Part shown: piece after piece, positions 21 to 14,913 of the stretch
How the letters are laid out: each line of letters opens with the position of its first letter
How positions within the stretch are numbered: position 1 is the stretch's first letter
DNA from: Hormoscilla sp.
Lineage (GTDB): Bacteria; Cyanobacteriota; Cyanobacteriia; Cyanobacteriales; Desertifilaceae
Length of the DNA stretch: 21,926 nt
Direction of reading: 5' to 3'
NCBI GenBank assembly: GCA_051439505.1
Contig: JBFRWI010000184.1
Span: 1-21,926, forward strand
Made by a program: the position numbers and the translations under genes
Notes under the pieces: generated by a model
Told to the model about the DNA's origin: nothing
Seen by the model: the letters and a program-made list of their open reading frames with translations, nothing else
The model's database searches: none

Positions 21-464
21 TTACAACTTAAATTCCGCTGGACTTAAGGTCAATTCTTTGCACATTTCTCTGATCATGCTCTTCTCATCATCATCAAAAT
101 AGCCGTCCGCAGCCCCGATCGCGCAACAAACCGTCACCAACAATTTCGCTGCTTCTTCATTATCCCTAATTTTGACCACAGCATTTAATGCTTGTCGCTT
201 GCCGATGTCAAAATTGAATTCAAAATCCGAGGCATACTTGTTAAACTTTTCCAACACGTCTCTCATCTCAAAGACACGGAGTTCGGGACTGCGTTCGATA
301 AAACCCGTCATCTTTTGCTTTTCAGAAGCATCGATATGGCCGTCCGCCGCCGCCACCAAGGCGCACCCAGCGACAACTGCCTCCAGAAAGTCTTTGTTCT
401 TAAAGCGGCCCACAGCCTCTTGCAGATTTTTTCTCTGGGCATTGAGCCAATCCATAAAACTCAT
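21..464 (-). CDS. terB: TerB-family tellurite/stress-response protein
   Basis: 147-aa ORF with the TerB-type duplicated motifs CALVAAADGHIDASEKQKM and CCAIGAADGYFDDDEKSMI; GGAGG RBS upstream; lies downstream of TerD-like genes. Confidence 0.85.
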   Translation of the reverse strand: MSFMDWLNAQRKNLQEAVGRFKNKDFLEAVVAGCALVAAADGHIDASEKQKMTGFIERSPELRVFEMRDVLEKFNKYASDFEFNFDIGKRQALNAVVKIRDNEEAAKLLVTVCCAIGAADGYFDDDEKSMIREMCKELTLSPAEFKL

Positions 465-479
465 AGTGTACCTCCTATG

Positions 480-1046
480 CTAAGCTAAAATCACGTGAGA
501 GCCAGGAATGTCCGTCTCGAAGCTATCTAGACTCATAATCTGGTTTTCGTTAATCAACTTAGCACCGATCGGGCTAGTATTGTCGATTTTTGCCACCACA
601 GCCACTGCTCCTTTTTCCGGCGAATTCAACGGCACTTCTACCGATTCGCCCTGGTTCCCCACCACCTTAACACTACCATCATAGGCGCTGAAAGAGGACT
701 CTTTTTTCTCGATCGCGTCGGTATAGTTAATAGCGCAGATATAGACAAATGCCATATCATCCAGGCGAGTAATGCGCAAAACTTCTTCATTCTCGCCACC
801 GACTGCACCCACGCCAGCATCGCCACTCAGTTGAATAAAAGGAAAGTTATTCAAGGAACCCATTTCTCCACCGGGATAGTTCTCAGACACCACTCCCCCA
901 GTTCGACCGTCCTTCGTTTTATAGAATGCCATCAAGTCCAAATCCACGTCCGCAGTCCAGCTCAGGGTGACCATTAACTGCTTGATCGGTATATATGCTT
1001 CCTCTCCCTTAGTTTGGAGAGTAACTTTAGGTTTTAGTTCCGCCAT
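480..1046 (-). CDS. TerD/TerA-like stress-response protein (paralog 3)
   Basis: 188 aa; LSW..DVDLDLMAFY and GSLNNFPFIQLSGDAGVG..GGENEE motifs of the TerD fold; GGAGG RBS; paralogous to 1073..1639 and 5995..6561. Confidence 0.8.
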   Translation of the reverse strand: MAELKPKVTLQTKGEEAYIPIKQLMVTLSWTADVDLDLMAFYKTKDGRTGGVVSENYPGGEMGSLNNFPFIQLSGDAGVGAVGGENEEVLRITRLDDMAFVYICAINYTDAIEKKESSFSAYDGSVKVVGNQGESVEVPLNSPEKGAVAVVAKIDNTSPIGAKLINENQIMSLDSFETDIPGSHVILA

Positions 1047-1072
1047 ATTTTTCCTCCACCAAAAAGTTCCTG

Positions 1073-1639
1073 TTAGCCCAAAATATGTTCCGCACCGGGA
1101 ATGCTACCAGCGAATTTGCCCAAACTGACGACCCGGTTTTCGTTAATTAACTTAGCACCGATCGGGCTAGTATTATCAATTTTCGCGATAATGGCAATGT
1201 GACCCTTTTCCGTTGCATCCAAAGGGATCGCTACCGATTCACCTCTGTCGTCTCGCACCACCACACCACCATCATAGTCGCTGAAGGAGCTATCTTTCCT
1301 GACGCTCGCATCAGTATAGTTGATGGTGCAGATGTACACTTCTGCCATCTCCTCCAATTTGGAGATCCCTAACTCTTCCTGATTATCCCCGCCTCTGGCC
1401 CCCACACCAGCATCCTGGCTGAGTTTAATATAGGGGAAACTACTGAGACTGCCCTGGTTGCCCCCTGGGTAATTTGCGGACAATACTGCACCGGTGCGAT
1501 CGTCCTTAGTTTTGTAGAATGCCATCAGGTCTAAATCTACATTTGCCGTCCAATGCAGGGTGACTATCAGTTTGTGGATGGGAATGTAGGCTTCATCGCC
1601 CTTTTTTCCCAGGGTTACTTTTGCTTTCAGTTCTGCCAT
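1073..1639 (-). CDS. TerD/TerA-like stress-response protein (paralog 2)
   Basis: 188 aa; LHWTANVDLDLMAFY and GSLSSFPYIKLSQDAGVG motifs; tandem paralog of 480..1046. Confidence 0.8.
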   Translation of the reverse strand: MAELKAKVTLGKKGDEAYIPIHKLIVTLHWTANVDLDLMAFYKTKDDRTGAVLSANYPGGNQGSLSSFPYIKLSQDAGVGARGGDNQEELGISKLEEMAEVYICTINYTDASVRKDSSFSDYDGGVVVRDDRGESVAIPLDATEKGHIAIIAKIDNTSPIGAKLINENRVVSLGKFAGSIPGAEHILG

Positions 1640-1642
1640 GTT

Positions 1643-1691
1643 TGCTAATTGCTAATCGCTAATCGCTAATTGCTAATCGCTAATTGCTAAT
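1643..1691. repeat. Heptameric short tandem repeat (YGCTAAT x7), STRR-like
   Basis: Seven consecutive TGCTAAT/CGCTAAT units just upstream of the start codon at 1639. Confidence 0.9.
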
Positions 1692-1742
1692 TGTAACTTA
1701 ACAATCAACCCGACGCAATTTTCCCTAACCGCATGTGGGGAA

Positions 1743-2471
1743 CTAAATCCCCACAGTCCTAGCTTTGCTGGCCCAAAGGCTCTGAATCCATAATAATATA
1801 TCTTGTGTCCCAGCATGAGATATAGCAGGGGAGCAGTAACCCCCTTCCTTAGATTTAACCATATCTTTAACTTTTTCATGAGCATCAACCAGAGTAGCTG
1901 GGTGGAGGGCATGTCCCAGCATGTCCAAGTCATTCAGGTCATTGCCCAGGGCCATCCAGGGTTCCAGGCCCAATTTCTCCAGTCCGGATAGTTTGTTAGC
2001 AAGGGTTGGATAGACATATATTTTATGTCGGTCTAAATAAATATGTCCATGCTTGCCAGTTTGGCTGAGGACGGACCGCAACATGGCTTCCGGGTCGTCC
2101 ACAGATTTGGGCGGAATCAGACCGAGACATTGTTCGTAACCGGTGATGCGCAGCCAATCTGGGAGTAAATTGGCTACTGTGTCCCACTGCGCTCCATCCG
2201 ATCCTGGATGGAGGTGCCTGCGGGCGATCAGACCATTTTCGGTGACAAAGCCGCAAAAGTTTACCTGGGGCAGTTGGTCCACCAGTCTTTTGACGCTTTG
2301 GGCATTGCGGGCGCTGGCGATCGCCACTGGCATCTGGTGACTGATTTCCTCTAGTAGCTGGGCTGCCATTGAACTCATATACTGGTAATGGGAACGACCC
2401 CAGACCGCGATCGCCTCTGGTTCGGGATGCAGTAGGGTTCCATCCAAGTCTACAGCTAAAACTTTTTCCAT
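1743..2471 (-). CDS. HAD-superfamily phosphatase (Cof/IIB-like), Ter-cluster associated
   Basis: 242 aa; motif I AVDLDGTLL, motif II ASAR, motif IV ALGNDLNDLDML. Confidence 0.85.
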   Translation of the reverse strand: MEKVLAVDLDGTLLHPEPEAIAVWGRSHYQYMSSMAAQLLEEISHQMPVAIASARNAQSVKRLVDQLPQVNFCGFVTENGLIARRHLHPGSDGAQWDTVANLLPDWLRITGYEQCLGLIPPKSVDDPEAMLRSVLSQTGKHGHIYLDRHKIYVYPTLANKLSGLEKLGLEPWMALGNDLNDLDMLGHALHPATLVDAHEKVKDMVKSKEGGYCSPAISHAGTQDILLWIQSLWASKARTVGI

Positions 2472-2497
2472 TGTCAGTTGTCAGGTAGGGTGGGCAT

Positions 2498-2713
2498 CAA
2501 TACTTCTCTTGTCATTGCGAGGGGGGTACGCAGCGATTAACGTATGGGAAATTGAGTCAACCCCCCCGAAGCAATCCCCACGCCGTATGAGGAATAACGC
2601 TTCGGTGTCGTCGGTGAGATTGCTTCGGGGGGGGATCCGAGGCGGGGATCAGAAGAATGCTCGTTTGGTAACCCCCCCCCTCGCAATGACAAGTTATTAA
2701 CCGAGAAGTATTG
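2498..2713. mobile_element. MITE with 11-bp terminal inverted repeats and 10-bp target-site duplication
   Basis: CAATACTTCTC (2498-2508) and GAGAAGTATTG (2703-2713) are perfect inverted repeats; the direct repeat GGGTGGGCAT flanks them at 2488-2497 and 2714-2723. Confidence 0.8.
2509..2692. repeat. Cruciform palindromic element, copy 1
   Basis: TTGTCATTGCGA-G6 / 34-nt loop / C7-GAAGCAATC / centre / GATTGCTTC-G8 / 37-nt loop / C9-TCGCAATGACAA; further copies at 8963-9120 and 9269-9339. Confidence 0.9.
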
Positions 2714-2757
2714 GGGTGGGCATTGCCGGCAATGCCCACCATGTCAGTTTTCAGCTT

Positions 2758-2780
2758 ACCACTAACCACTAACCACTAAC
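2758..2780. repeat. Heptameric tandem repeat (ACCACTA x3)
   Basis: accactaaccactaaccactaac just upstream of the methyltransferase start. Confidence 0.7.
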
Positions 2781-2787
2781 TATTAAA

Positions 2788-3543
2788 ATGAACAACAAAC
2801 TGAATATGGGACCAGCGGAATTTGCCCAAATCAAAGCCGACCTTTGGAACGCCTGTGATTACGATCGGGCTTTTATCACTCCACAAGGTCAACTGATCGA
2901 TCGATTAGAGAGACAGGCATTGAGAACTGCTTTATCAGGTCGCGTTTACGAATCCGCCTTAGATGTAGGAATTGGCAATGGGCGCTTGCTAGAAGAATAC
3001 AGTCCCCATGTCAAGCGGATAGTCGGATTAGATCTTTCCGCCAAGCAACTGTCCTTAGCTAGGCAAAAAGCCCAAAAACTTCATATTGACTTAACCGTCA
3101 AATTGTCAGAAGATGCTTCGCAAATTACTCTTCCAGATAGCAGTTTTGATTTGATCGTTTGTACCCGCGTCTTGCAACATTTGTATAATCGCCAGCAGGC
3201 GATCGGGGAATTTGCCCGCCTGTTAAAGCCAGAGGGGGAGTTATTGCTTTTAACCTACAACCGCTATTCTATCTTGGGAATGAAGAAACTTTATGAAAAC
3301 AATTTTATCAACCCGCTGAAGGGAAACTTTTCCAGTCCCCTTTCCCTGAACAAAGAACTGAAAGCACGTGGTTTTGAAATCAAATATTATGCGGGGGGAC
3401 TGTTGGGACAGCCAGAGTTATTTAGGGAAAACCTGTCTGCTGCGTCCCAAAGCATGATTATCTTTTTAGAGAGATTCTCTCAGGTGACTCCCTTTAAGTT
3501 ATTTGGAGGGAGACAGGTTGTCAGAGCATGTTTAAAAAGTTAG
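2788..3543 (+). CDS. Class I SAM-dependent methyltransferase
   Basis: 251 aa; motif I ALDVGIGNG, post-I GLDLS, LPDSSFDLIV, and RLLKPEGELLL. Confidence 0.9.
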   Translation: MNNKLNMGPAEFAQIKADLWNACDYDRAFITPQGQLIDRLERQALRTALSGRVYESALDVGIGNGRLLEEYSPHVKRIVGLDLSAKQLSLARQKAQKLHIDLTVKLSEDASQITLPDSSFDLIVCTRVLQHLYNRQQAIGEFARLLKPEGELLLLTYNRYSILGMKKLYENNFINPLKGNFSSPLSLNKELKARGFEIKYYAGGLLGQPELFRENLSAASQSMIIFLERFSQVTPFKLFGGRQVVRACLKS

Positions 3544-3663
3544 CGAGGCCAGAATTCAGAACCCGGTTTTTGGTCGAAACAGAGTTTCTGAGCAGCTGCT
3601 AATTGCTAATTGCTTATACGAAGTGCGCGACGCAGGAGCGCTATTGCTAATTGCGGGTGCATC

Positions 3664-3784
3664 GGGTGCATCTCACTTTCGCACGGGCGAAGCAAAAGGA
3701 GCAGTAAATTTGTCGATCTCTGACTGATATTGTCGCCCAAATGCTACGCCCCTACAGATAGATTTGCAAATATGCAGTGTACCC
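3664..3784. mobile_element. MITE-like element with GGGTGCATCTCA terminus (degenerate right end), copy A
   Basis: Starts GGGTGCATCTCAC, ends TGCAAATATGCAGTGTACCC, internal REP-like AATGCTACGCCCCTAC; aligns with the reverse complement of 14558-14703. Confidence 0.7.
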
Positions 3785-3785
3785 A

Positions 3786-4748
3786 TTATAGCATGTTCTT
3801 TAGGGAGCAGGCAACTCGGGTTTGATAATCTGCTAATTGCTTGGCATCATAGACAATGTTTACACGCCGTCGCTCTGCTAAAGCCAATAGCAGGCTATAA
3901 TGTTCTCGAACGTAGACGCGATCGTCTGCAAAATAGATAGTATCTGGATTAGCATTGATTAAGGCACGGCAAACTTCATTGCCGTGTATTCTCAAGTCAG
4001 TCTCTAACCAAAATCGTTGCTTATCTGCTAGCGGTGTTGATGGCAATTGAGGGCAATAATTCTGCCAGGTTGTAACTAAGTTGGGGCGAGAATAGGCTTC
4101 GGGAAACAGGTAGGCGGCAAATAAACTGCGATCGTCCACATAGAAAGTTCTGGAAAAGCCGAGAGTAGCGACGCCAGTGAAGCAAGCTGTAGGACAGAAG
4201 AGATCGTCAACTGCACCAGAAAAATCGGCCCACCCCCAAGGGTCAATTAAAACAGCTAGGGGTCCGATTCCCAGTTTTGATACCTCTCTCGCAACGCGAC
4301 CTTTTCCAGTCCAACCGTCAACAAAAATAATTTGGCGATCGCCATATAGCGATCGCACCTTCTGCAAGGCTACTCGATCGATTCCCATACCCGGAAATAG
4401 AGATAAGATAACTCCTACCGATCCGGGGATTAAGCGACAAAGCCAATCTGCGATCGGGACTCCGGCTCTTAAAATAGCTACAAAGAGTAACTTGCTAGGG
4501 TCAGGTGATGTAGTGATAATAGCAGCAGCGAGGCGAGTAGCGGCCAGTTTAATTTTATCATCTTCTAGGCTGGAGAGTAGCAATTGCCAAAAGTCGTCAT
4601 CCAGATTTGGTTCTGGGGAAGGTATTGACCAAAAGCTATTATTGCCATCATAAGTCTGGGACAAGTCCCGGAAATATTTACTGTCTCTAAAGGGGTCAAT
4701 TTCCTCCATAAACTGGGCGTATACGGTTTGATTCCAAAGATTTTTCAT
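3786..4748 (-). CDS. StiP-like PRTase-fold protein with probable C-terminal PELOTA-type RNA-binding domain (Ter biosynthetic module)
   Basis: 320 aa; LFVAILRAGVPIA, IIFVDGWTGKG and DDLFCPTACF motifs match the Ter-associated StiP/PRTase family; context in the ter cluster. Confidence 0.75.
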   Translation of the reverse strand: MKNLWNQTVYAQFMEEIDPFRDSKYFRDLSQTYDGNNSFWSIPSPEPNLDDDFWQLLLSSLEDDKIKLAATRLAAAIITTSPDPSKLLFVAILRAGVPIADWLCRLIPGSVGVILSLFPGMGIDRVALQKVRSLYGDRQIIFVDGWTGKGRVAREVSKLGIGPLAVLIDPWGWADFSGAVDDLFCPTACFTGVATLGFSRTFYVDDRSLFAAYLFPEAYSRPNLVTTWQNYCPQLPSTPLADKQRFWLETDLRIHGNEVCRALINANPDTIYFADDRVYVREHYSLLLALAERRRVNIVYDAKQLADYQTRVACSLKNML

Positions 4749-4749
4749 A

Positions 4750-4819
4750 CAGGTTCGTAGTAAGGACTTTAGTCCTTCAGGTTCGTAGTAAGGACTTTAG
4801 TCCTTCAGGTTCGTAGTAA
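4750..4819. repeat. 28-bp tandem REP-like repeat (CAGGTTCGTAGTAAGGACTTTAGTCCTT x2.5)
   Basis: Units 4750-4777, 4778-4805 and partial 4806-4819; internal hairpin AAGGACT-TT-AGTCCTT. Confidence 0.9.
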
Positions 4820-4871
4820 ATATTTTATATCATTTTGGGGAAAAATGCTACGATTACTTTACAACTTCCGT

Positions 4872-4892
4872 GGTGGGCGGTGCCCACCCTAC
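4872..4892 (-). repeat. GTAG-type REP hairpin (GTAGGGTGGGCACCGCCCACC), possible terminator/stabiliser
   Basis: Hairpin GGTGGGC-GGT-GCCCACC abutting the stop codon of 4892..5965. Confidence 0.7.
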
Positions 4893-5965
4893 TATAGGAT
4901 AAGATCGTTTACTGTAAAGCCAGCTTGGGATAACTTTTTTTTCGCGGCCAATGCGATGGGTTCATCATCGGGATCGTACAGTAGGTAGATGGGAGACTTC
5001 AACTGCTTGTAGTTATAAAGATAATATTTATCGCAAATATCTAAGCGATGATGAATATTAATGCCATCAACGCGCCAGGGACTCAGAGTGATATGCTGGA
5101 AGGATAATTTCCGATTCACCCGCACCATTCTTAAGGCTAAATCAATGGCTTCCCCGATCGCCAAAAGCGAACCTTCGAGATTGTTTGGTAAATTCGGGAG
5201 TAGATGCAATTGTGCATTGAGGGCTGCCCGTTGTTCTGGCAAGTGCCATTGACTCTCAGTTAGTTCTTTGACAATCAGATCTTCACTAATGATAATATCT
5301 TCATGCAATAAGTCTTGGGCCCGATATTGGAGATCGGGAGGTAACCGAATTAAAGTCTGGCTAGAGAACAGAATGTCGCGATCGGCAAGAATGGACTCAA
5401 ACTGGGCAATTTGGGCAGAACTGCGGCGATCGGCGATCGCGAATAATCGCATCTGGCGAACATGTAGGAGTGCCGACAGATGCAGGGCTAAATTTAAAAT
5501 AGTGCGACCTGTAGTAATTTCATCTTCTACGAACCACAATTGAGAGGGTGAAAATTGGGGCAGAGGTAGGGTATGATGGGGACCGTGAGAATGGCTTTCG
5601 ATAAAGCGAATCCCAGAAGCCCGTCTGCGGGTCGAACAGATCCAGCCTGCGGAGATATCCCGTTCTCTGACCACTTGATGCATCAAAGCCGAGGGGATAA
5701 TTCCCGATTCAGTTAAGCCAATAATTAAAGGATATCCTGATATTGGCGTTTGGGAGTCCGATGACCGCAGCAGAGCGATAAAGTGTTTTTTACAGGAGAG
5801 CAAATCTCGATCGGAAGTCAATCCTAACTTGCCCAGGAAAGAAAAGCTGAGGGCTGTTTGGCGATGGGGATTATTTTCTCGTTGCAGATGATAGGTAGTG
5901 ATTGCTGCTGTCATTGGCACCTTAACAAAATCGCTCAGTTGCCCTCCCCATCTTTGTGAGAGCAT
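4892..5965 (-). CDS. Phosphoribosyltransferase-domain protein, PRTase-TRSP-like (Ter biosynthetic module)
   Basis: 357 aa; LIIGLTESG, FIESHSHGPHH, and PRPP-binding loop WFVEDEITTGRT. Confidence 0.8.
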   Translation of the reverse strand: MLSQRWGGQLSDFVKVPMTAAITTYHLQRENNPHRQTALSFSFLGKLGLTSDRDLLSCKKHFIALLRSSDSQTPISGYPLIIGLTESGIIPSALMHQVVRERDISAGWICSTRRRASGIRFIESHSHGPHHTLPLPQFSPSQLWFVEDEITTGRTILNLALHLSALLHVRQMRLFAIADRRSSAQIAQFESILADRDILFSSQTLIRLPPDLQYRAQDLLHEDIIISEDLIVKELTESQWHLPEQRAALNAQLHLLPNLPNNLEGSLLAIGEAIDLALRMVRVNRKLSFQHITLSPWRVDGINIHHRLDICDKYYLYNYKQLKSPIYLLYDPDDEPIALAAKKKLSQAGFTVNDLIL

Positions 5966-5994
5966 GGGAAAGGCAACAAAAACGGGGACTAGCT

Positions 5995-6561
5995 TTAACC
6001 CGCCAGTTTGTTAGCGCCGGGAATATTGCCGAAGAAAGTCTCCAATGAGACAATCCGGTTTTCGTTGATCAACTTGGCACCCATGGGACTGCTATTGTCA
6101 ATCTTGGCAATAACTGCCACGTGACCCGGTTCCTTAGAGTCCAAAGGCACGGCCACGGACTCGCCCTTATCATCGATGACGACAATGCCGCCGTCATAAT
6201 TGCTGAAGGAGGCGTCTTTCTTCTCACTAGCGTCCGTGTAGTTTAAGGTGCAAATGTAGAGTTCCGCCAAGTCGTCCAGCTTGGTGATTCTCAAAACCTC
6301 CTCGTTGTCGCCGCCCTTAGCTCCAACTCCGGCATCACCGCTCAGCTGAATGAAGGGAAACTCGTTGAGACTGCCCATGGAACCGCCCGGGTAGTTGTCG
6401 GAGAAGACACCGCCAGTGCGACCGTCCTTGGCCTGATAGAAAGCCATCAAATCCAGATCGACATCTTGGGTCCATTTCAGGGTCACCATCAGTTGCTTGA
6501 CGGAAACATATGCTTCGTCGCCCTTTTTCTGAAGAGTGACCTTAGCCTTGAGGTCTGCCAT
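5995..6561 (-). CDS. TerD/TerA-like stress-response protein (paralog 1)
   Basis: Start moved from 6591 to the ATG at 6561 (MADLKAKVTL, GGAG RBS), giving 188 aa like its two paralogs; DVDLDLMAFY and GSLNEFPFIQLSGDAGVG motifs. Confidence 0.8.
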   Translation of the reverse strand: MADLKAKVTLQKKGDEAYVSVKQLMVTLKWTQDVDLDLMAFYQAKDGRTGGVFSDNYPGGSMGSLNEFPFIQLSGDAGVGAKGGDNEEVLRITKLDDLAELYICTLNYTDASEKKDASFSNYDGGIVVIDDKGESVAVPLDSKEPGHVAVIAKIDNSSPMGAKLINENRIVSLETFFGNIPGANKLAG

Positions 6562-6715
6562 ATTGACTCCTTTGTGAAAAGCTATCCCCAAGAGTGTACT
6601 ATATTTGCAGGTCCGATTTCATCGACCCCAGAAGCAGATCCCTCGGATAGTAGAGGGATGGCGGTGCTGGGAGCAGATAAACTAGAGCGGAAACGGTTGT
6701 AGCCAGGGGTGAGTA

Positions 6716-7798
6716 ATGAATTCTGACATGCCAGACGATCGATCACAACAGGAGACCAGACCAGACGATTACTGGAATTGGTACGACCAGGGGCGAAATT
6801 TAGATGTGGAGGCTAACTACTCCGAGGCGGTGGCCCATTACGACAAGGCATTAGAGTCTCGACCGTTAGACTACTGGGCCTGGTATAACCGAGGCAGTGC
6901 CCTGTTGAGCTTAGGACGGTACTCGGAGGCGGTCGAGTCTTACAAACAAGCTTTGGAGTTAAGACCGGATGATTACTGGGCCTGGTACCGCCTGGGAAGG
7001 GCGTGGCATTACTTGGAAAATTATCGGCAAGCAGCAGTCAGCTACGAAAAAGCTATAGCATGTAAATCTGAGGATTATTGGGCCTGGTATCGGTTGGGCG
7101 ATGCCCAGCGCCAGTTGGGAGAACTTTCCGAGGCCCTGAACAGTTACTTACGGGCCACGCAGATCAAACCCAAGCGTTGGGAAGCCTACTACGGTCGCGG
7201 ACGGGCCCTGGATGCTGCCGAACGGTTTGATGAGGCGATCGCCCACTACGAGGAGGCTTTAGCAATTCAACCCCATGAGGCTGTGGTCTGGTACGATCGG
7301 GGACGGGCGCTGCATGATTTAGAACGCTATGACGGGGCCCTGTCCGACTACGATCGCGCGATCTCCTTGGCACCGGACAATTACTGGGCCTGGTATCAGC
7401 GGGGCGTGGTGTTGAGTGAGTTGGGACGTTACGAAGAGGCGATCGTTAGTTTTGACCGGGCGATCGACCGACAACCAGATTTGCAGCAGTGGCATTTTCC
7501 GAGTTTGGGTAGCTGGGTATGGTCCGATCGGGGTTACGCCCTGGACCGACTGGGACGTCTAGATGAGGCGATCGCGAGTTACTCCAAAGCTTTGGAAATA
7601 GAACCCCATGACCCAGAGATTATCTATGACTTAGCTAGCTGCTATGCCCTTAAAGGTAAGGTGCAGCAGTCTCTAGCCTACTTGCAGCAGGTAATTGATC
7701 GAGAAGAATATCGCGCCAAAGCGAAAACCGACAGTAAGTTTGACAAGCTGCGGTCAGAGAAGATGTTTAAGAGTTTACTGTCTGTTGAACCTGAATAA
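6716..7798 (+). CDS. Tetratricopeptide repeat protein with C-terminal capping domain
   Basis: 360 aa; about 9 34-aa TPRs (DYWAWYxxG..L..Y.EA...Y..A); C-terminal YDLASCYALKG...AKTDSKFDKLR cap. Confidence 0.9.
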   Translation: MNSDMPDDRSQQETRPDDYWNWYDQGRNLDVEANYSEAVAHYDKALESRPLDYWAWYNRGSALLSLGRYSEAVESYKQALELRPDDYWAWYRLGRAWHYLENYRQAAVSYEKAIACKSEDYWAWYRLGDAQRQLGELSEALNSYLRATQIKPKRWEAYYGRGRALDAAERFDEAIAHYEEALAIQPHEAVVWYDRGRALHDLERYDGALSDYDRAISLAPDNYWAWYQRGVVLSELGRYEEAIVSFDRAIDRQPDLQQWHFPSLGSWVWSDRGYALDRLGRLDEAIASYSKALEIEPHDPEIIYDLASCYALKGKVQQSLAYLQQVIDREEYRAKAKTDSKFDKLRSEKMFKSLLSVEPE

Positions 7799-8312: not shown

Positions 8313-8528
8313 TTATGTCAACTTCTTTTGCTTGTATTCTTCTAGCAGGCGTTGGCCTCGGTTCCGGCGATAGACATTGAGGATATTATTGCGATTTTCC
8401 GCTTCCACTTGGGCGATCAATTCATCCAAAGCCATAATTTGCGCGTCAAACATATAGCAAACGTCCCGCAGGCGGGCAACGGATTTTGCTCTTGTTTCAG
8501 CATCAGGTATCCTTGGTTGGTTGTTCAT
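8313..8528 (-). CDS. Small hypothetical protein (71 aa, helical, basic C-terminus)
   Basis: ATG overlaps the stop of the upstream gene (ATGA), suggesting translational coupling. Confidence 0.65.
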   Translation of the reverse strand: MNNQPRIPDAETRAKSVARLRDVCYMFDAQIMALDELIAQVEAENRNNILNVYRRNRGQRLLEEYKQKKLT

Positions 8529-8869
8529 GATAAATTCCAGTTTCTTTTAACGTCTTGAATGCTTGCGTATCCAGCATCAACGCCAGCTTCTGCTTCTGCG
8601 ATCGATCGGGCTAGTAAGTTCATTGTAGCAGCAGTGGCGACGGGTTGGGATTCGGCGCTCTGCCATAGAAGTCTGTAAAGGCGCGAGGAGTAACCGATCG
8701 CGCGTTCTCTGATGTTATCCAGTTCTTCGAGTTCGGGAATTGTCTCCTCTGTCTCGCCAAACTGTTCCAGCATGACGAAAACTGTTGCTGAGGCTTCGTG
8801 ACCCAGTTGCAGCAGTCGCCGCTGTAAGCTGAAAACATTGTTTATGGTGTCTTCTGGTAAGTTTGCCAT
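8525..8869 (-). CDS. Hypothetical protein (114 aa, acidic, helical)
   Basis: ATG start with AAGGA upstream, protein-like composition; coupled to 8313..8528. Confidence 0.7.
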   Translation of the reverse strand: MANLPEDTINNVFSLQRRLLQLGHEASATVFVMLEQFGETEETIPELEELDNIRERAIGYSSRLYRLLWQSAESQPVATAATMNLLARSIAEAEAGVDAGYASIQDVKRNWNLS

Positions 8870-8962
8870 CTGCTTGATTGATATTCCTTATAAATTATAC
8901 CATAGGGGAGCATTCTATTTTTGCAAAAATGTATGTATTCGTGAATAACACTCTCAATAAGC

Positions 8963-9120
8963 TGTCATTGCGAGGGGGGAGATCGAACCAACATTTTTCT
9001 GAGCACAACCAGTAGACCCCCGAAGCAATCTCATAGGCTGTTGGGAGGCTGGAGATTGCTTCGGGGGGGTAAACTCATAGCAGTACAAGGAGAATTACTA
9101 GCGCCCCCCTCGCAATGACA
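8963..9120. repeat. Cruciform palindromic element, copy 2
   Basis: TGTCATTGCGA-G6 / 37 nt / C5-GAAGCAATCTC / 19 nt / GAGATTGCTTC-G7 / 34 nt / C6-TCGCAATGACA. Confidence 0.9.
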
Positions 9121-9268
9121 AATAGGATATTTTAGCTTAACGAGTGTACCATTTCCTATATTCGTAGCAACCCAACGGCTTCCCAGATCGGTTATGCTGG
9201 GTAAGGTCAAGATGGTAACCGGGAACTGGATATAGCAGTTCTCGCCCTTTGTGTGATATGCTGTTGGG

Positions 9269-9339
9269 GAGATTGCTTCGGGGGGGATAAATCATAAAGC
9301 ATAAGTTATCGCGCTTGTCCCCCCCCCTCGCAATGACAA
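9269..9339. repeat. Cruciform palindromic element, half copy 3
   Basis: GAGATTGCTTC-G7 / 32 nt / C9-TCGCAATGACAA; left half absent. Confidence 0.85.
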
Positions 9340-9358
9340 ATAGTATAAAATAGAGGGC

Positions 9359-9386
9359 TTGACATTTTGACGGCACGTGCTATGAT
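9359..9386 (+). promoter_or_regulatory. Putative sigma70-type promoter of the NTPase-TPR operon
   Basis: TTGACA (9359-9364), 16-nt spacer, TATGAT (9381-9386) preceded by TGC (extended -10); 38 nt before the ATG at 9425. Confidence 0.6.
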
Positions 9387-9424
9387 GAGAACGGGACTGC
9401 ACAAACTTAGGGAATTGTTGATTT

Positions 9425-10738
9425 ATGGAAGAATTACTGGATGACATTTACAACGCTTTTGACCCTTTCCAACCCTTACCACCTGGAGATCCTGTATATG
9501 TGGATTTAAGGGCAGTCCGGGGAGATGAGAATATCGAGGTGTTAGGGAAGAGAATTAGCCGGTCTAAACGGAGGACTTGCAACCTTTATGCGGGTCATCG
9601 GGGTGCGGGGAAATCCACGGAACTCCTCCGTTTGAAGGAATATTTGGAAAAACGGGACTTTTGGGTGGTTTATTTTGCAGCGGACGAGCAAGATATTGAC
9701 CCCGAGGATACCCAATATACTGATATTCTACTTGCCTGTACCCGCCACTTGCTAGAAGATCTCAAATATGCTAATGCTAGTCCTTTGCTGAACTGGTTGG
9801 GCGATCGCTGGCAAGAGTTGAAAGATTTGGCCCTGACTGAGATAGAATTTGAAAGTCTGGGTGTAGAGGGTCAGATCGGACTATTCGCTAAGCTAACGGC
9901 GAATTTAAGAGCTGTACCGACCCTGCGCCACCAAATTAGAAGTAAAGTCGATCCCCAAACGGTTACCCTGATGACGGCGTTGAATGAGTTTATTGGGGAG
10001 GCGAAAAAAAAGCTACCTTCAGGACGGAAAAAGTTGGCGGTGATTGTTGATAACCTAGACCGCATGGTGCCGGTTATCCAGGAAAGCGGGCGCACCAATC
10101 ACGAGGAGATTTTTATCGATCGCAGCGAACAACTGAAGGCTTTGGATTGCCATTTGATCTACACGGTGCCGATCTCAATGGTCTATTCTAGCAGGGCGAA
10201 TAGCCTCAGAGAGATCTATAGCGACCCGCAAGTTTTGCCGATGATTATGGTGCAGACTAGATCTGGCGAGATCCACCAACCGGGTTTTGAGAAGATTAAA
10301 GAGGTAATTGATAAGCGAGTTCGCCAATTTGCTCCGACTCGTTCCCTGGAAACGGACATATTTGACAGTCCCGATACCCTGGAAAAACTTTGCCTCATGA
10401 GTGGCGGTCACGTCCGGAATTTGCTATTATTGGTGCAAGCGGCGATCGACCATACCGAAAACTTGCCGATCGCGGATAAAGCGGTACGGCGATCGATTAC
10501 GGATGCGCGGGATACCTATCGGAGAACGGTTGAAGATAACCAATGGCGTCTGTTGGCAGAAGTTGCGGGTTCCAAGCAACTGCGCAATGATAATGATTAT
10601 CGGAGTTTATTGTTTACTCGCTGTATTTTAGAATATTGCTTTGAGGAAGCAGGAGAACGACTGCATTGGTATGACGTTCACCCTCTACTCAGAGGGGTGC
10701 GGGAATTTCAAGAAGCGGTGGAGCAGATGAAGTCATGA
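9425..10738 (+). CDS. P-loop NTPase (AAA/KAP/STAND-like)
   Basis: 437 aa; Walker A GHRGAGKST, Walker B LAVIVDNLDR, SGGHVRNLL helical-domain motif, C-terminal WYDVHPLL. Confidence 0.85.
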   Translation: MEELLDDIYNAFDPFQPLPPGDPVYVDLRAVRGDENIEVLGKRISRSKRRTCNLYAGHRGAGKSTELLRLKEYLEKRDFWVVYFAADEQDIDPEDTQYTDILLACTRHLLEDLKYANASPLLNWLGDRWQELKDLALTEIEFESLGVEGQIGLFAKLTANLRAVPTLRHQIRSKVDPQTVTLMTALNEFIGEAKKKLPSGRKKLAVIVDNLDRMVPVIQESGRTNHEEIFIDRSEQLKALDCHLIYTVPISMVYSSRANSLREIYSDPQVLPMIMVQTRSGEIHQPGFEKIKEVIDKRVRQFAPTRSLETDIFDSPDTLEKLCLMSGGHVRNLLLLVQAAIDHTENLPIADKAVRRSITDARDTYRRTVEDNQWRLLAEVAGSKQLRNDNDYRSLLFTRCILEYCFEEAGERLHWYDVHPLLRGVREFQEAVEQMKS

Positions 10739-12300
10739 AAGCAGCATTAACTGATTGGGACAGGGATGCACCTGTCGATCCAGAGGAAGCATATAAGGCA
10801 TTGGTTCGCTCTCTCAGGCGGAGAAGGGGGTTTGGACTGCTATTCGTTCACGGTTCGCCAGCAGAAGGTGAGCGGGTAATTGCGAGAGTAAAAAAAGATC
10901 TGCCCCAGAAAAGGATTGAGGTGTTGGAGTTGAAGCAAGGGGTTGATAACTTTTATAATCTGGTTGAGGAATTTTCCAATATAGAGAAAGTCAATATTCT
11001 GTTCGTCACGGGGATAGAATATTCACTGTACGAGTATGAAGAGGAGAAACGAGAGCAGGGATGGGAGAGTGAGGATATTTACTTCTACAGTTGGAAAGGG
11101 GTGCCGCGAATTTTGATGAACTTAAATCAACAGCGAGAACGGTTTAGAGATAATTTTAATGTCTGCTTTGTTTTTATCTTGCCGAGATTTGCTCTTGATT
11201 ATATGAATGAGAGGGCTCCGGACTTTTTCGATTGGCGATCTGGAATATTTAAGGTATATAAAAATACAGAACTACTGGCGGAGGAAGCGGATTTATTAGA
11301 TTGTATAAACTTGACTGATGCAGAGCGAGGAGTTAAAATTAGAGAAATTGCAGCCCTGCTTAAGGACAGTAGTCAAATGGTGGCGGAGGAAAAGGCTGAT
11401 TTGTTTTATCAGCAGGGTTTGCTGCTAACGAGTGCGGAGAGATATTCAGAGGCGATCGCATCTTTTGACAAAGCGATAAAAATTAAACCTGACGATCACC
11501 AATTATGGTACTATAGAGGCAATGTGCTGGGCAAGTTGGAAAGATATTCAGAGGCGATCGCATCTTTTGACAAAGCGATAACAATTAAACCGGATGACTA
11601 CTATGCCTGGAATAACCAGGGTATTGCGATGGGTAATTTGTCAAGATATTATGATGCTCTCGGAACCTACGACAAAGCCATAGAAATAAAACCGGATGAC
11701 CATAATGTATGGAACAACCGGGGCGTTGCGCTGAATGAATTGGAAAGATATGAAGAAGCGATCTTATCCTATAACAAAGCCATAGAAATAAAACCTGAGT
11801 CCCACCAGGCTTGGAACAACCGGGGTTGGGTGCTGCATGAGTTGTCAAGATATTCAGAGGCGATCACATCCTACGACAAAGCTATAGAAATAAAACCTGA
11901 TTATCACGAGGCTTGGAGCAACCGGGGCTTGGCGCTGCATGATTTGTCAAGATATTCAGAGGCGATCGCATCCTATGACAAAGCCATAGAAATCAAACCG
12001 GATTTCCACTATGCCTGGAACAACCGGGGCATTGCGCTGGGATATTTGTCAAGATATTCAGAGGCGATCGCCTCTTACGACAAAGCCATCGAAATCCAAC
12101 CTGACGACCAGTCTACATATTACAATAAAGCCTGCTGTTATGCCTTGCAGGGTGATGCTGAACTGGCTGTAAGGACTTTCCAACAGGTTCTTAATCTGGG
12201 TGGTCAGGAATACTTAGAGTATGCCAAAACAGATTCAGATTTTGACAAAATTAGGTCAAATCAGCAGTTTCAGGCGCTGCTGCAAGGACAAACTGATTGA
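10735..12300 (+). CDS. TPR protein with N-terminal alpha/beta (probable degenerate NTPase) domain, paralog 1
   Basis: 521 aa; ATGA overlap with the NTPase; about 175-aa N-domain ending RAPDFFDWRSG; about 8 TPRs with a 102-bp period; C-terminal YYNKACCYALQG...AKTDSDFDKIR cap. Confidence 0.88.
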   Translation: MKAALTDWDRDAPVDPEEAYKALVRSLRRRRGFGLLFVHGSPAEGERVIARVKKDLPQKRIEVLELKQGVDNFYNLVEEFSNIEKVNILFVTGIEYSLYEYEEEKREQGWESEDIYFYSWKGVPRILMNLNQQRERFRDNFNVCFVFILPRFALDYMNERAPDFFDWRSGIFKVYKNTELLAEEADLLDCINLTDAERGVKIREIAALLKDSSQMVAEEKADLFYQQGLLLTSAERYSEAIASFDKAIKIKPDDHQLWYYRGNVLGKLERYSEAIASFDKAITIKPDDYYAWNNQGIAMGNLSRYYDALGTYDKAIEIKPDDHNVWNNRGVALNELERYEEAILSYNKAIEIKPESHQAWNNRGWVLHELSRYSEAITSYDKAIEIKPDYHEAWSNRGLALHDLSRYSEAIASYDKAIEIKPDFHYAWNNRGIALGYLSRYSEAIASYDKAIEIQPDDQSTYYNKACCYALQGDAELAVRTFQQVLNLGGQEYLEYAKTDSDFDKIRSNQQFQALLQGQTD

Positions 12301-12312
12301 GAGGGCTGTAAG

Positions 12313-12714
12313 ATGTCAATGGTAGATGAATTTCCTATTGGAGAGACTCTGACAGAAGTCTCGATCGTGGAATACAAAGAATTTGGCGGTGATGAACTTT
12401 GTCTGGACAAGGTGCAGCTGATTTTTCCCGACAGAACTGTCATCCTGCAACCGCTAGCTGATACGGATGAGATAGAGATAATCCTGAAAAGTACAACCCT
12501 CACGTCCCTGACGAATCATCCGACATGGTGCAGTTCTCTTCTGGGGAAAAAACTCCAGACAGTATGGGTATGCGAAAACGATCAAGGTTATCAAGACCAA
12601 ATTATTTTCGCCTTCGATCGCCTGCATCCAAGTATCGCTTTCATTGCTGAAGGTTCAGTTCTCAAAGCTTTCCACTGCGAGCAAATTCTCAAATTTCCAG
12701 GATCGTCAACCTAG
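12313..12714 (+). CDS. Hypothetical protein, DUF6334-like (tentative)
   Basis: 133-aa acidic beta-rich ORF with GAGGG RBS right after the TPR stop; family assignment from memory of the WVCENDQGYQD motif, unverified. Confidence 0.65.
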   Translation: MSMVDEFPIGETLTEVSIVEYKEFGGDELCLDKVQLIFPDRTVILQPLADTDEIEIILKSTTLTSLTNHPTWCSSLLGKKLQTVWVCENDQGYQDQIIFAFDRLHPSIAFIAEGSVLKAFHCEQILKFPGSST

Positions 12715-12727
12715 AGGATCCCAAGAG

Positions 12728-12767
12728 GGCGATCGCCCAAATAATTCTGTAGCATTGGGCGATCGCC
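12728..12767. repeat. 13-bp perfect inverted repeat built on two HIP1 sites (possible terminator)
   Basis: GGCGATCGCCCAA (12728-12740) / TTGGGCGATCGCC (12755-12767). Confidence 0.7.
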
Positions 12768-12799
12768 GCAGTTTCAACAAGCAATGGAGGTTCAAAGTC

Positions 12800-14380
12800 A
12801 TGAAAGCAGCATTAACTGATTGGGATATCGATTTACCTGTAGATCCAGAAGAAGAATATAACGCCTTAGTTCGCTCCCTCAGGCGGCGAAAGGGGTTTGG
12901 ACTGTTATTCCTTCAAGGTTCCCCAGCAGAAGGCGATCGGGTAATTGGGAGAGTGAAAGGGGATCTGGCCCAGAAAAGGATTGAGGTATTGTCACTGGAT
13001 AAATCAACGGACAATCTCTACGGGATAATAGAGAGTTTACCAGAGCGAGACCAAATTAATATCATCTTTATCAAAGGGCTGGAAAATTCCTTATATGAAT
13101 ATGAACTGATGAAGGTCCAAAAAGGATGGAATAGCCGGGAGATTTACAATTATAGTTGGAAAGGTGTCCCGCCCCTTTTAAGTCACTTAAACCAACAGCG
13201 AGAAAGGTTTAGAGATAATTTCCAGATCTGCTTTGTCTTTATCGTCCCTCTGTTCGCCCTCAAATATTTGATCCACCGGGCCCCCGATTTTTACGACTGG
13301 CGATCGGGTTTGTTTCAGTTTATCCCCGATCGGGAAATGCTGGCCAGAGAATGCTCTCGCATTATCCAGGAAGAATCATATCAAAAATACAGCGAACTAA
13401 CCATGGAAGAAAGAAGAAAAAAAATAATGGAAATTCAAGAGCTCCTGGAACATCAATCTATTACCTCAAGGGAGAGAGCAGATTTACAATATGGATTGGG
13501 CAAATTACTGAGTGTGGAAAAAGAATATGAAGCAGCACTGGCGTCCTATGAAAAAGCCGTAGAAATTATACCGGAATCAGCTAGATATTGGAAAGGATGT
13601 GGCATTATCATGAGGAAGCTAGAAAGATCTCAAGAGGCAATAGATTGCTATAATAGAGCGATAGAAATAAATCCAGATTACCACAATGCCTGGAACGGAC
13701 GGGGTATTGTTTTCACTCAGTTGGGACGCTATGAAGAGGCGATCGCATCCTATGATTGTGCCCTAGAAATTAAACCAGATTATCACAAAGCCTGGTTCGG
13801 ACGGGGCAATGCGTTAAATTGGTTGGGACGCTATGAAGAGGCGATCGGGTCCTATGACCGGGCGCTAGAAAGCAAAGCCGATGATTACTATTCCTGGAAC
13901 GGACGGGGCAATGCGTTAAATCGGTTGGGACGCTATGAAGAGGCGATCGGGTGCTACAAGAAAGCCATAGAAATCAAAGCCGATGATTACTATTCCTGGA
14001 ACGGACGGGGCAATGTCCTGGGAAATTTAGGACGCTATGAAGAGGCGATCGCGTCTTATGACAAGGCCCTAGAAATCGCCGATGATTACTATTCCTGGAA
14101 CCGAAAAGGAAATTTGCTGATCACTTTGGGAAGGTATGGAGAGGCGATCGCATGTTTAGACAAAGCTATCGAAATTAAACCGGATGACTACTATGCATAT
14201 TACAACAAAGCCTGCTGTTATGCCTTGCAGGGGGATGCCGAACCGGCGATAAAGAACTTGCAACAGGCTGTTAATCTGGGTAGTAAGGAATACCTAGAGA
14301 AAGCCAAAACAGATTCAAATTTTGACAAAATTCGGTCAAATCAGCAGTTTCAGGCCCTGCTGCAAGGACAAACGGATTGA
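12800..14380 (+). CDS. TPR protein with N-terminal alpha/beta (probable degenerate NTPase) domain, paralog 2
   Basis: Start moved from 12644 to the ATG at 12800 (MKAALTDWD, identical to paralog 1; GGAGG RBS); 526 aa; same N-domain, about 8 TPRs and C-terminal cap. Confidence 0.88.
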   Translation: MKAALTDWDIDLPVDPEEEYNALVRSLRRRKGFGLLFLQGSPAEGDRVIGRVKGDLAQKRIEVLSLDKSTDNLYGIIESLPERDQINIIFIKGLENSLYEYELMKVQKGWNSREIYNYSWKGVPPLLSHLNQQRERFRDNFQICFVFIVPLFALKYLIHRAPDFYDWRSGLFQFIPDREMLARECSRIIQEESYQKYSELTMEERRKKIMEIQELLEHQSITSRERADLQYGLGKLLSVEKEYEAALASYEKAVEIIPESARYWKGCGIIMRKLERSQEAIDCYNRAIEINPDYHNAWNGRGIVFTQLGRYEEAIASYDCALEIKPDYHKAWFGRGNALNWLGRYEEAIGSYDRALESKADDYYSWNGRGNALNRLGRYEEAIGCYKKAIEIKADDYYSWNGRGNVLGNLGRYEEAIASYDKALEIADDYYSWNRKGNLLITLGRYGEAIACLDKAIEIKPDDYYAYYNKACCYALQGDAEPAIKNLQQAVNLGSKEYLEKAKTDSNFDKIRSNQQFQALLQGQTD

Positions 14381-14427
14381 GAGGGCTGTAAAATGTCAAT
14401 GGTGGTAGCAATAATTACCTCTCTTCG

Positions 14428-14466
14428 CTGTTAGCCCGCCGGGGGTTCAAACCCCCGGCTAATAGC
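14428..14466. repeat. REP-like hairpin (GCCGGGGGTT-CA-AACCCCCGGC)
   Basis: 10-bp perfect stem at 14438-14459 with TTAGCC/GGCTAA flanks, downstream of TPR paralog 2. Confidence 0.7.
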
Positions 14467-14557
14467 TAAAGGAAGGTTTTGACCGACTAATGCCATAATG
14501 CTTATTGAGAGGGCTGTAAGATGTCAATGGTGGTATATAAATTTCCTAGAAGTATTG

Positions 14558-14703
14558 GGGTGCATCTCATATTTGCAGCAATGTACTGTAGGGGCGAAGC
14601 ATTACGGAGACAATCTCTGACATAAATTGAAAAATTACCTGTCGTAATGCTAGCTGCTGCGCAGCCGCTGCGCTAGCGCCCGTGCAAAGCGTGAGATGCA
14701 CCC
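14558..14703. mobile_element. MITE-like element with 12-bp TIR GGGTGCATCTCA, copy B
   Basis: GGGTGCATCTCA (14558-14569) / TGAGATGCACCC (14692-14703); internal GTAGGGGCGAAGCATT REP; homologous to 3664-3784 in the opposite orientation. Confidence 0.8.
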
Positions 14704-14708
14704 GTAAA

Positions 14709-14753
14709 ATTTACCTGTAGATCCAGAAGCAGAAGATAATGCCTTAGTTCGCT
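14709..14753 (+). pseudogene. Remnant of the 5' end of a third TPR paralog
   Basis: 42 of 45 nt identical to 12831-12875 (LPVDPEEEYNALVR-coding segment). Confidence 0.75.
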
Positions 14754-14873
14754 ACTCTAAGCAATTGGGAAATTATTTCTTCAAAAGCAAAATGGGAAAA
14801 TTGATGGTAATATTGAAGCGATCGCATTTACAACCAGGCAATTCGGCGCGATTTAACCAGATAATGAACAAGA

Positions 14874-14913
14874 AACAATCAAGAATGAACAATCAAGAAT
14901 GAACAATCAAGAA
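14874..14913. repeat. 14-bp tandem repeat (AACAATCAAGAATG x~2.9) overlapping the MFS start codon
   Basis: Units 14874-14887, 14888-14901 and partial 14902-14913. Confidence 0.8.

Follow-up and report, generated by a model that had tools for sequence, protein, structure and literature searches.

An AAA+ NTPase encoded with degenerate-AAA+/TPR partners in a cyanobacterium: a possible NLR-like receptor split over two genes

The 21,926-nucleotide stretch of Hormoscilla sp. DNA analysed here (the window) contains an operon-like module of a stand-alone NTPase and two tetratricopeptide repeat (TPR) proteins, partners A and B, whose shared N-terminal domain of about 175 residues is modelled as a degenerate AAA+/P-loop core. 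In partner A this domain is predicted to sit on the nucleotide face of the NTPase. We tentatively read the locus as an NLR-like receptor divided between two genes, in which the TPR groove would bind a foreign protein and the dead AAA+ domain would switch the NTPase. The features of the locus are as follows.

9359-9386, + strand: sigma-70-like promoter candidate with an extended -10, 11/12 matches in a consensus scan
9425-10738, + strand: NTPase gene, 437 aa, ORF call
10735-12300, + strand: partner A gene, 521 aa
10735-11265, + strand: partner A N-domain, modelled as a degenerate AAA+ core with collapsed P-loop
11395-12300, + strand: partner A TPR array, 8 repeats of 102-nt period followed by a TPR end-of-group cap
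12313-12714, + strand: DUF6334 gene, 133 aa (Pfam PF19860, E 2e-40)
12770-12803, + strand: putative remnant similar to the final ~10 codons of an NTPase gene (~21/30 bases match the 3' end of the NTPase gene)
12800-14380, + strand: partner B gene, 526 aa, encoding 8 TPRs and an end cap behind a predicted degenerate AAA+ N-domain
14376-14407 and 14504-14535, + strand: repeat D6, two more copies of a 32-nt junction found after partner A
14709-14753, + strand: repeat D5, 45 nt left over from a third partner gene (5' end), 93% identical to 12831-12875

The preliminary description of this DNA had noted an NTPase gene coupled to a TPR gene by an ATGA overlap and followed by a second, paralogous TPR gene, and both observations hold: the NTPase stop overlaps the start of partner A at 10735-10738, and partner B, counted from the ATG at 12800 (the 578-aa ORF with a TTG start is over-long), is 59% identical to partner A overall. 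The promoter candidate, 38 nt upstream of the NTPase start, is the best among 15 consensus sites in 8900-14900 and is a candidate only, since shuffled sequence yields 10.3 +/- 2.9 such sites. The DUF6334 gene between partners A and B is a strain-specific passenger, absent from all other 168 loci searched and skipped in the contig of a relative. Both this gene and the nSTAND2 precedent (PMC8195603) discussed below had been overlooked. As already remarked from the letters, no effector is visible: Pfam and NCBIfam profile scans found no effector domain in either partner, and there are no MoxR or vWA genes among the window ORFs.

Walker A (GHRGAGKS, residues 57-64) and Walker B (VIVDNLDR, 206-213) of the NTPase are intact. 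Archaeal ATPases 2qen and 2fna align with its residues 10-430 at Z 14.9 and 14.4, tied with TnsC and Cdc6, and NLR chains give Z 11-13; it is a Cdc6/TnsC/MNS-STAND-like AAA+ protein standing alone. By sequence, a PDB search returned nothing below E 0.69 and there was no match to Pfam nSTAND2 at E 0.1. The gene is under purifying selection (dN/dS 0.29-0.36 against three genus orthologs). R331, inside an SGGHxR motif, is invariant; R233, at the equivalent arginine place, is found in 106/107 close alignment rows and is missing from deep clades, and there is no deep-conserved arginine ahead of strand 5.

The N-domain carries no Pfam, NCBIfam or PADLOC family name in profile searches. The AlphaFold2 model of residues 1-185 of partner A (pLDDT 88) places strands at 34-39, 61-65, 88-92, 144-149 and 170-173, with the P-loop collapsed such that just residues 40-41 separate strand 1 from the next helix. 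VIA-align listed AAA+ proteins in 50/50 matches, the best being TnsC (Z 10.4, rmsd 4.2, 147 aligned), while the top Foldseek matches were ORC and the DNA-replication regulator 5x06, which we take to be Hda (E 1e-4 to 9e-4). The motifs in which an eroded P-loop fold had been suspected (LLFVHGSPAEG, ILFVTGIE, CFVFIL and RAPDFFDWRSG) are all present in partner A, and the suspicion agrees with the model, for which the listed VIA-align matches and the top Foldseek matches are AAA+ folds. The reported lack of GKS/T extends to the family: [GA]xxxxGK[ST] occurs within the first 230 residues of 4/270 proteins, always near residue 189 and beyond the N-domain. The domain is under purifying selection by codon comparison, and N131, R134 and D163 are invariant (113/113 close and 24/24 deep rows). 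Two further proposals were rejected: homology between NTPase and N-domain at the sequence level (hhalign probability 2%, so that a common origin is not established) and R168 as a universal arginine finger, a residue that 84/113 close rows retain and deep clades have lost.

An interaction of NTPase and N-domain, as had been supposed, is predicted for partner A. The 1:1 complex scored 0.82 against 0.00 for the best control, on a scale whose mark is met by 116/157 solved and 2/215 mismatched pairs; these counts are only rough here, and the score may reflect likeness to AAA+/AAA+ interfaces already solved (ORC, TnsC). The runs share at least 92% of contacts, with partner pLDDT of at least 82. The predicted interface comprises P-loop residues 59-60, post-Walker-B residues 210/213 and R331 on the NTPase side, and residues 131-135, 158-163 and 166-171 on the partner A side, the tightest contacts linking the NTPase N-terminus and lid to helix 16-31 of the partner, not to R134. 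Distance matrices of the two proteins correlate strongly over 114 pairs, kin included (Pearson 0.93, permutation maximum 0.22).

Beyond the N-domain, partners A and B each have 8 Pfam TPR_1 matches and the TPR end-of-group cap NF047558. With groove positions taken from PMC1261162, groove codons of 46 repeats gave dN 0.62 against dS of 0.35 (groove) or 0.24 (all), and framework dN was 0.09, values that are approximate because the repeats are non-independent and recombining; the six repeats of partner B alone gave a weak signal (groove pN 0.40 vs pS 0.30). Variable groove positions are a general trait of TPRs (PMC1261162). Repeat counts in four genus orthologs are 8, 8, 12 and 34, and the groove is likely a fast-changing sensing surface.

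In the split-receptor reading, the variable groove of the TPR partner would capture a foreign protein, presumably invader-derived. The dead AAA+ domain, predicted to dock on the ATP site of the NTPase, would likely switch it on through a trans-acting arginine, for which R134 is the best candidate, and the switched NTPase would then signal in trans to executors such as caspase-like CHAT, TIR, NACHT or vWA-MoxR, which we place elsewhere because the locus has none. We infer a role in defence; if so, many filamentous cyanobacteria would carry several paralogs of a split, cassette-swappable receptor design in their genomes. It is conceivable, if doubtful, that the family constitutes an undescribed modular two-gene NLR-like class in which a pseudo-AAA+ plug-in adaptor, carried on any sensor or effector, would complete in trans the ATP site of a cognate effector-less NTPase and so license it. 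Were this true, one switch could serve exchangeable sensor cassettes in cyanobacteria, each genome would maintain several clades of cognate switch and sensor, and the design would be a bacterial parallel to sensor/helper NLR pairs. Inactive STAND domains have no functional precedents and nucleic-acid sensing was proposed for them (PMC8195603); the present data favour a role of inactive STAND/AAA+ domains in regulating a partner ATPase in trans, which can be tested on two soluble proteins and their single mutants. The analysis also explains a very common cyanobacterial gene pair annotated as an ATP-binding protein with a TPR or WD40 protein, and gives the unannotated N-domain a predicted fold and partner.

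As a precedent, the nSTAND2 active/inactive two-gene system comes closest; it is itself predicted and proposed to form a hetero-multimer (Kaur et al. 2021, PMC8195603), and the locus does not belong to it. The preliminary description had raised the question of a match to a characterised system: the layout is shared, with a two-gene operon in which an active STAND precedes an inactive one that carries TPRs, whereas the sequence family, module and effectors differ. Like the NTPase, none of 41 N-domains matches Pfam nSTAND2. The inactive nSTAND2 module measures ~320 aa including a wHTH and mostly comes with GT4 or HEPN (PMC8195603), whereas here the modelled core ends at ~175, a short linker follows and TPRs begin at ~221, with GT4 and HEPN absent from both partners and from 19 extended relatives scanned. 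The nSTAND2 rows compared are gammaproteobacterial; the present family is expanded in cyanobacteria, usually without effector. Both nSTAND2 proteins have a conserved arginine finger; here R134 is invariant in the partner and R233 occurs in some NTPase clades.

Like the iSTAND/iSTAND2 MoxR-vWA ternary systems (PMC7159879, PMC8195603), the family has an inactive STAND-like domain in multicellular cyanobacteria, and some of its members are fused to iSTAND, VMAP-C or vWA proteins. Unlike in those systems, MoxR and vWA are missing at the locus and the constant partner is an active NTPase; iSTAND PF19995 matches 0/41 N-domains and, in P0234, a C-terminal domain. With Avs and other bacterial NLR receptors (PMC13581612) the locus shares a TPR sensor and an NTPase resembling the STAND type, but Avs is a single chain with an N-terminal effector, not split, whereas here two genes encode the sensor and the switch, a pseudo-ATPase links them, and no effector is present. 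Curated models gave scores far below their cut-offs (DS-41, 19.8 bits vs 370; PDC-S20, 20 bits, E 9e-5, positions 28-197 of 464). Two traits of KAP-family NTPases, a DNLDR Walker B and an insert separating it from Walker A, are present in the NTPase, which scores 15.2 bits against a gathering cut-off of 20 with KAP Pfam PF07693. Literature word searches, with most subscription papers outside their scope, found no paper on the NTPase/N-domain pair. Four accessions were not in the supplementary files of PMC13581612, though the NTPase may still be among its 589 clades, and the family terms were not in the files of PMC7159879, whose source data may lie outside that search.

A different role altogether, namely signalling or proteostasis in large-genome cyanobacteria, in which the TPR partner would deliver client proteins of the host to the ATPase, for instance during development or under stress, is in our view unlikely. 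It fits the lack of a defence-island signal: the defence setting looked for with PADLOC did not emerge, matches being confined to 11/150 flanking ORFs at 24 loci (150 of 163 flanking ORFs scanned, no control set), mostly kinase, TPR and other generic domains. Several paralogous pairs per chromosome and fusions of a sigma-factor-like or other regulatory kind also agree with it, and many STAND clades have been classed as non-defence (PMC13581612). Against it stand the dN>dS of the groove and the rapid repeat turnover, the patchy presence of the family with broken copies in close relatives, and fusions to ternary conflict-system parts. In favour of the split receptor, some partners bear CHAT, NACHT-HEAT, iSTAND, VMAP-C or nSTAND1-WD40, SAV_2336/vWA-type proteins beside MoxR carry the NTPase as a C-terminal fusion, and one plasmid copy adjoins NB-ARC and TIR genes. 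Against the split receptor, the locus has no effector, the sigma70_r4, sugar transferase and periplasmic binding domains of some fusions are not conflict-like, and most partners consist of N-domain and TPRs only; a further stretch of at least 110 aa is present in 51/315, many of these stretches being divergent TPRs.

Pairing, which had been expected to be conserved, is so. The N-domain was found in 30/101 cyanobacterial genomes, all 30 of which also have the NTPase, and among the matches listed 88/117 N-domain genes lie directly behind an NTPase gene (<=2.2 kb). The domain occurs in no fewer than 820 protein clusters (90% identity) or 505 (50%); a search of a phage collection gave no match, an atlas search with homologue P0096 returned cyanobacterial clusters, unnamed or TPR-named, and one mostly Acidobacteriota cluster, and one copy of the pair occurs in Acidobacteriota. 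The predicted complex might instead work as a guard, in which the partner caps and silences the NTPase until a TPR ligand frees it to self-oligomerise and act. We consider this less probable still than the client-adaptor role, even though the partner covers the nucleotide face in the predicted complex and, having no P-loop, would terminate a chain of AAA+ subunits, R233 is retained by the NTPase in close clades, and 14/23 orphan N-domain genes encode solo proteins of <=230 aa that could be decoys. The invariant NxxR on the trans face fits a catalytic contribution better than a plain cap, 3/55 NTPase loci with downstream room have no partner, and some copies are fused: 2/25 longer homologs are NTPase-N-domain-TPR fusions, and in the full fusion P0400, with NTPase then TPR order, 4/14 cluster members are 1087 aa.

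ORC/Cdc6 and TnsC assemblies, the closest folds, supply an arginine in trans. Active and inactive AAA+ subunits occur together in one complex (PMC8195603), and an ORC/TnsC-like, DNA-binding hetero-oligomer of this kind, sensing or remodelling nucleic acid with the TPRs as adaptors, would accord with TnsC and Cdc6/ORC as best structural matches of both domains and with the nucleic-acid sensing proposed for inactive STAND domains (PMC8195603). We regard it as improbable: those matches are nearly tied with other AAA+ folds, sequence identity is <=18%, replication or transposon context is missing, no transposase or nuclease neighbour recurs (PADLOC only) and it is a protein-binding groove that diversifies.

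It is very improbable that partner B is a relic without function and its tandem position meaningless, for although gene remnants lie on both sides of it and 0/55 NTPase loci have a second N-domain gene in the DNA fetched, the A and B N-domains (66% identical) show dN/dS of 0.22 at dS 1.13, conservation between the two is higher at predicted interface residues (35/44, against 81/133 others, p 0.03), the partner B ortholog P0034 is intact with an N-domain 98% identical, and one NTPase with two TPR partners, as described here earlier, recurs in 4 other genomes. A recent tandem duplication was rejected given that N-domain dS of 1.13, against 0.16-0.22 among genus orthologs; judged by this divergence partner B is an old paralog of partner A. 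It would use the same NTPase site and add a second specificity. Only the ends of genes A and B are alike (86%), and the stretch at 12770-12803, a match so short that its NTPase origin is presumptive, is in register with the partner B start.

The NTPase gene is followed on the same strand by two genes for N-domain/TPR proteins. The first, partner A, is coupled to it by an ATGA overlap and the second, partner B, is a paralog of partner A, just as the preliminary description had it. The two partners are 59% identical. Each partner carries eight TPRs and an end-of-group cap.

Features of the NTPase/partner locus
9425-10738, + strand: NTPase
10735-12300, + strand: partner A, ATGA overlap with the NTPase gene
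12313-12714, + strand: DUF6334 gene, between partners A and B
12800-14380, + strand: partner B
3' of partner B: two extra copies of the 32-nt post-partner junction (remnants)
3' of partner B: 45-nt fragment of a partner 5' end (remnant)

The nearest named relatives of the NTPase come from Hormoscilla genomes (92-93% identity), and all 55 NTPase loci recovered are cyanobacterial. The top promoter-like candidate lies 38 nt upstream of the gene, the count of such sites being near chance. Short dispersed repeats with many copies genome-wide occupy 14410-14700.

The NTPase gave only sub-threshold Pfam matches (AAA_16, KAP and others), and its scores against NCBIfam DS41 and PADLOC PDC-S20 fell far short of a full match. 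Its model (pLDDT 93) aligned with TnsC (Z 15.5, rmsd 4.0, 287 residues aligned), Cdc6 (Z 14.9) and the archaeal ATPases 2qen and 2fna (Z 14.9 and 14.4 over residues 10-430), with ORC/Cdc6 at the top in Foldseek. The Walker A residues, D209 and R331 show no variation, either across 107 close rows or in any deep row covering them, in agreement with the intact Walker A/B first read here. The N-domain matched no Pfam or NCBIfam family in the 41 members scanned, its sequence homology to the NTPase is undetectable, and its relatives number at least 820 when clustered at 90% identity and 505 when clustered at 50%. Its model (pLDDT 88, pTM 0.84) has five strands in AAA+ order, with a two-residue loop at the place of the P-loop. 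Every one of the 50 matches listed by VIA-align is an AAA+ protein, with Z from 10.4 down to 8.1; taken singly these values are middling, but there is no other fold in the list and Foldseek points the same way. The eroded P-loop fold suspected earlier, and with it the structural half of that interpretation, holds up well. N131, R134 and D163 are invariant in 113/113 close and 24/24 deep rows.

An ESMFold2 complex of the NTPase, N-domain A, ATP and Mg supports, short of proof, the binding of the two proteins that had been anticipated: it scored 0.82 against 0.00 for the best control. Among 157 solved complexes 116 attain the mark that was set, as do 2 of the 215 mismatched pairs, counts that are only rough here. 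Runs agreed in at least 92% of contacts with a partner pLDDT of at least 82. Since AAA+ interfaces have already been solved, likeness to these may contribute to the score. The predicted interface joins the nucleotide face (59-60, 85-93, 210-217, 331) and lid of the NTPase to helix 16-31 and the conserved segments 131-135 and 158-171 of the partner, the contacts of helix 16-31 having the lowest predicted error. From its conservation and position, R134 would reach the nucleotide.

The pairing is conserved across genomes, as the preliminary description required. An N-domain gene lies directly 3' of the NTPase at 45 of the 55 loci; by our own reading, seven others are cut off too early and three have room, two of the latter with an incomplete NTPase. 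Among 101 genomes of the phylum the NTPase occurs in 31, and 30 of these also have the N-domain, which is found in no others; both are absent from the small genomes listed. Conversely, 88 of 117 listed N-domain genes have an NTPase within 2.2 kb upstream, 6 lie within 4.5 kb ahead of one and the remaining 23 are orphans, including 14 that encode solo proteins of up to 230 aa; 87 of 115 NTPase matches have an N-domain gene behind. A search with the N-domain gave 80 metagenome loci: the NTPase lies upstream in 67, the sequence is too short to tell in 11, and in 2 the NTPase is absent. Distances of the two proteins correlate (r 0.93, 114 pairs, kin included). A second, distant pair in the genome of the window (G000:C148:4419-10891) has a partner with N-domain, TPR-like region, nSTAND1 and WD40; its ortholog in genome G104 is broken by a frameshift. 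An Acidisarcina plasmid also bears the pair, its partner identified via motifs and alignment and missed by the profile. NTPase, N-domain and TPRs are fused in 2 of 25 longer homologs, and the cluster of one such fusion (P0400, 14 members) holds four full fusions and seven NTPase-sized proteins. A clade of solo N-domains (~160-215 aa, e.g. G041:C1:564139, G050:C52:22115, G002:C16:94739) occurs without an adjoining NTPase in at least 14 places; these could possibly be trans regulators or decoys.

Partner B is an old paralog held by purifying selection (dS 1.13, dN/dS 0.22 against A), with an intact ortholog (P0034). A-B identity is 35/44 at predicted interface residues versus 81/133 elsewhere, and 18/23 versus 44/88 past residue 66. 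It was likely captured from another pair whose NTPase has since been lost. A short stretch upstream of it resembles an NTPase 3' end. On a single contig of a relative a partner 3' end is joined to the start of B without DUF6334. In four further genomes a single NTPase has two N-domain genes around it; the three orthologous loci of the genus have one each.

NTPase and N-domain orthologs show dN/dS of 0.23-0.36. TPR number is eight at this locus and 8, 12 and 34 in three relatives from the genus; across 42 loci, some of them clipped at contig ends, the range is 2-34. At the groove positions (2, 5, 6, 9, 12, 13, 33, 34; PMC1261162) of 46 distinct repeats dN is 0.62 versus dS 0.35, and in the framework 0.09 versus 0.22; half-sampled repeats gave a groove ratio of 1.2-2.7. 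This suggests an arms race, short of proof because the repeats are non-independent and groove variation is general among TPRs.

Our own profile found TPRs in 293 of 315 partners, and 51 have an extra stretch. In 19 extended partners scanned we found single cases of CHAT, NACHT-HEAT, iSTAND, VMAP-C, a sugar transferase and a periplasmic binding domain, and sigma70_r4 in two. Partners P0159, P0161, P0220 and P0254 share an unannotated C-terminal domain, without Pfam match in the two scanned, which we take to resemble HetZ-related proteins. The NTPase also occurs fused behind SAV_2336-type N-termini; in one such protein, right after MoxR on a Nostoc plasmid (NZ_CP040291.1, L088:5207-8131), no N-domain partner was detected alongside. 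A copy on an Acaryochloris plasmid adjoins NB-ARC and TIR genes.

PMC8195603 predicts nSTAND2, a two-gene active/inactive STAND system, and describes inactive STANDs as without functional precedents; the NTPase/partner module would work alike. In its source data, "AAA_22 then TPR+nSTAND1+BetaPropeller" appears for two Nostoc strains, and there solely among the neighbours of a caspase-bDLD3 gene; the architecture of these rows suggests the long clade of our family. iSTAND systems are defined by MoxR-vWA in PMC7159879, and the consulted passages of PMC13581612, PMC10907252 and PMC13092281 gave no description of the pair, which is outside nSTAND2, iSTAND and Avs. With the overall observation confirmed, we tentatively favour a sensor-licensed ATPase switch in conflict as the best reading. 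Two results count against defence: PADLOC gave only 11 matches, mostly generic domains, on 150 flanking ORFs, and the phage collection searched contained no copy. An adaptor outside defence ranks below the licensed switch and seems rather unlikely. A guard role, also ranked below it, is less probable still.

Upstream, a Ter-type stress cluster (21-6591, - strand; Pfam TerB, StiP-like, PRTase_2, HAD) includes three paralogous ~190-aa ORFs (480-1046, 1073-1639, 5995-6591), presumably TerD-like; ORF 480-1046 was scanned and gave no Pfam match. Relatives in the genus also have, upstream of their NTPase, the 114-aa ORF at 8525-8869 (- strand), which matched nothing in Pfam or NCBIfam. At 6716-7798 (+ strand) a 360-aa stand-alone TPR protein has the partner-type cap and no N-domain, and at the syntenic position of a relative (L003) lies a longer TPR gene.
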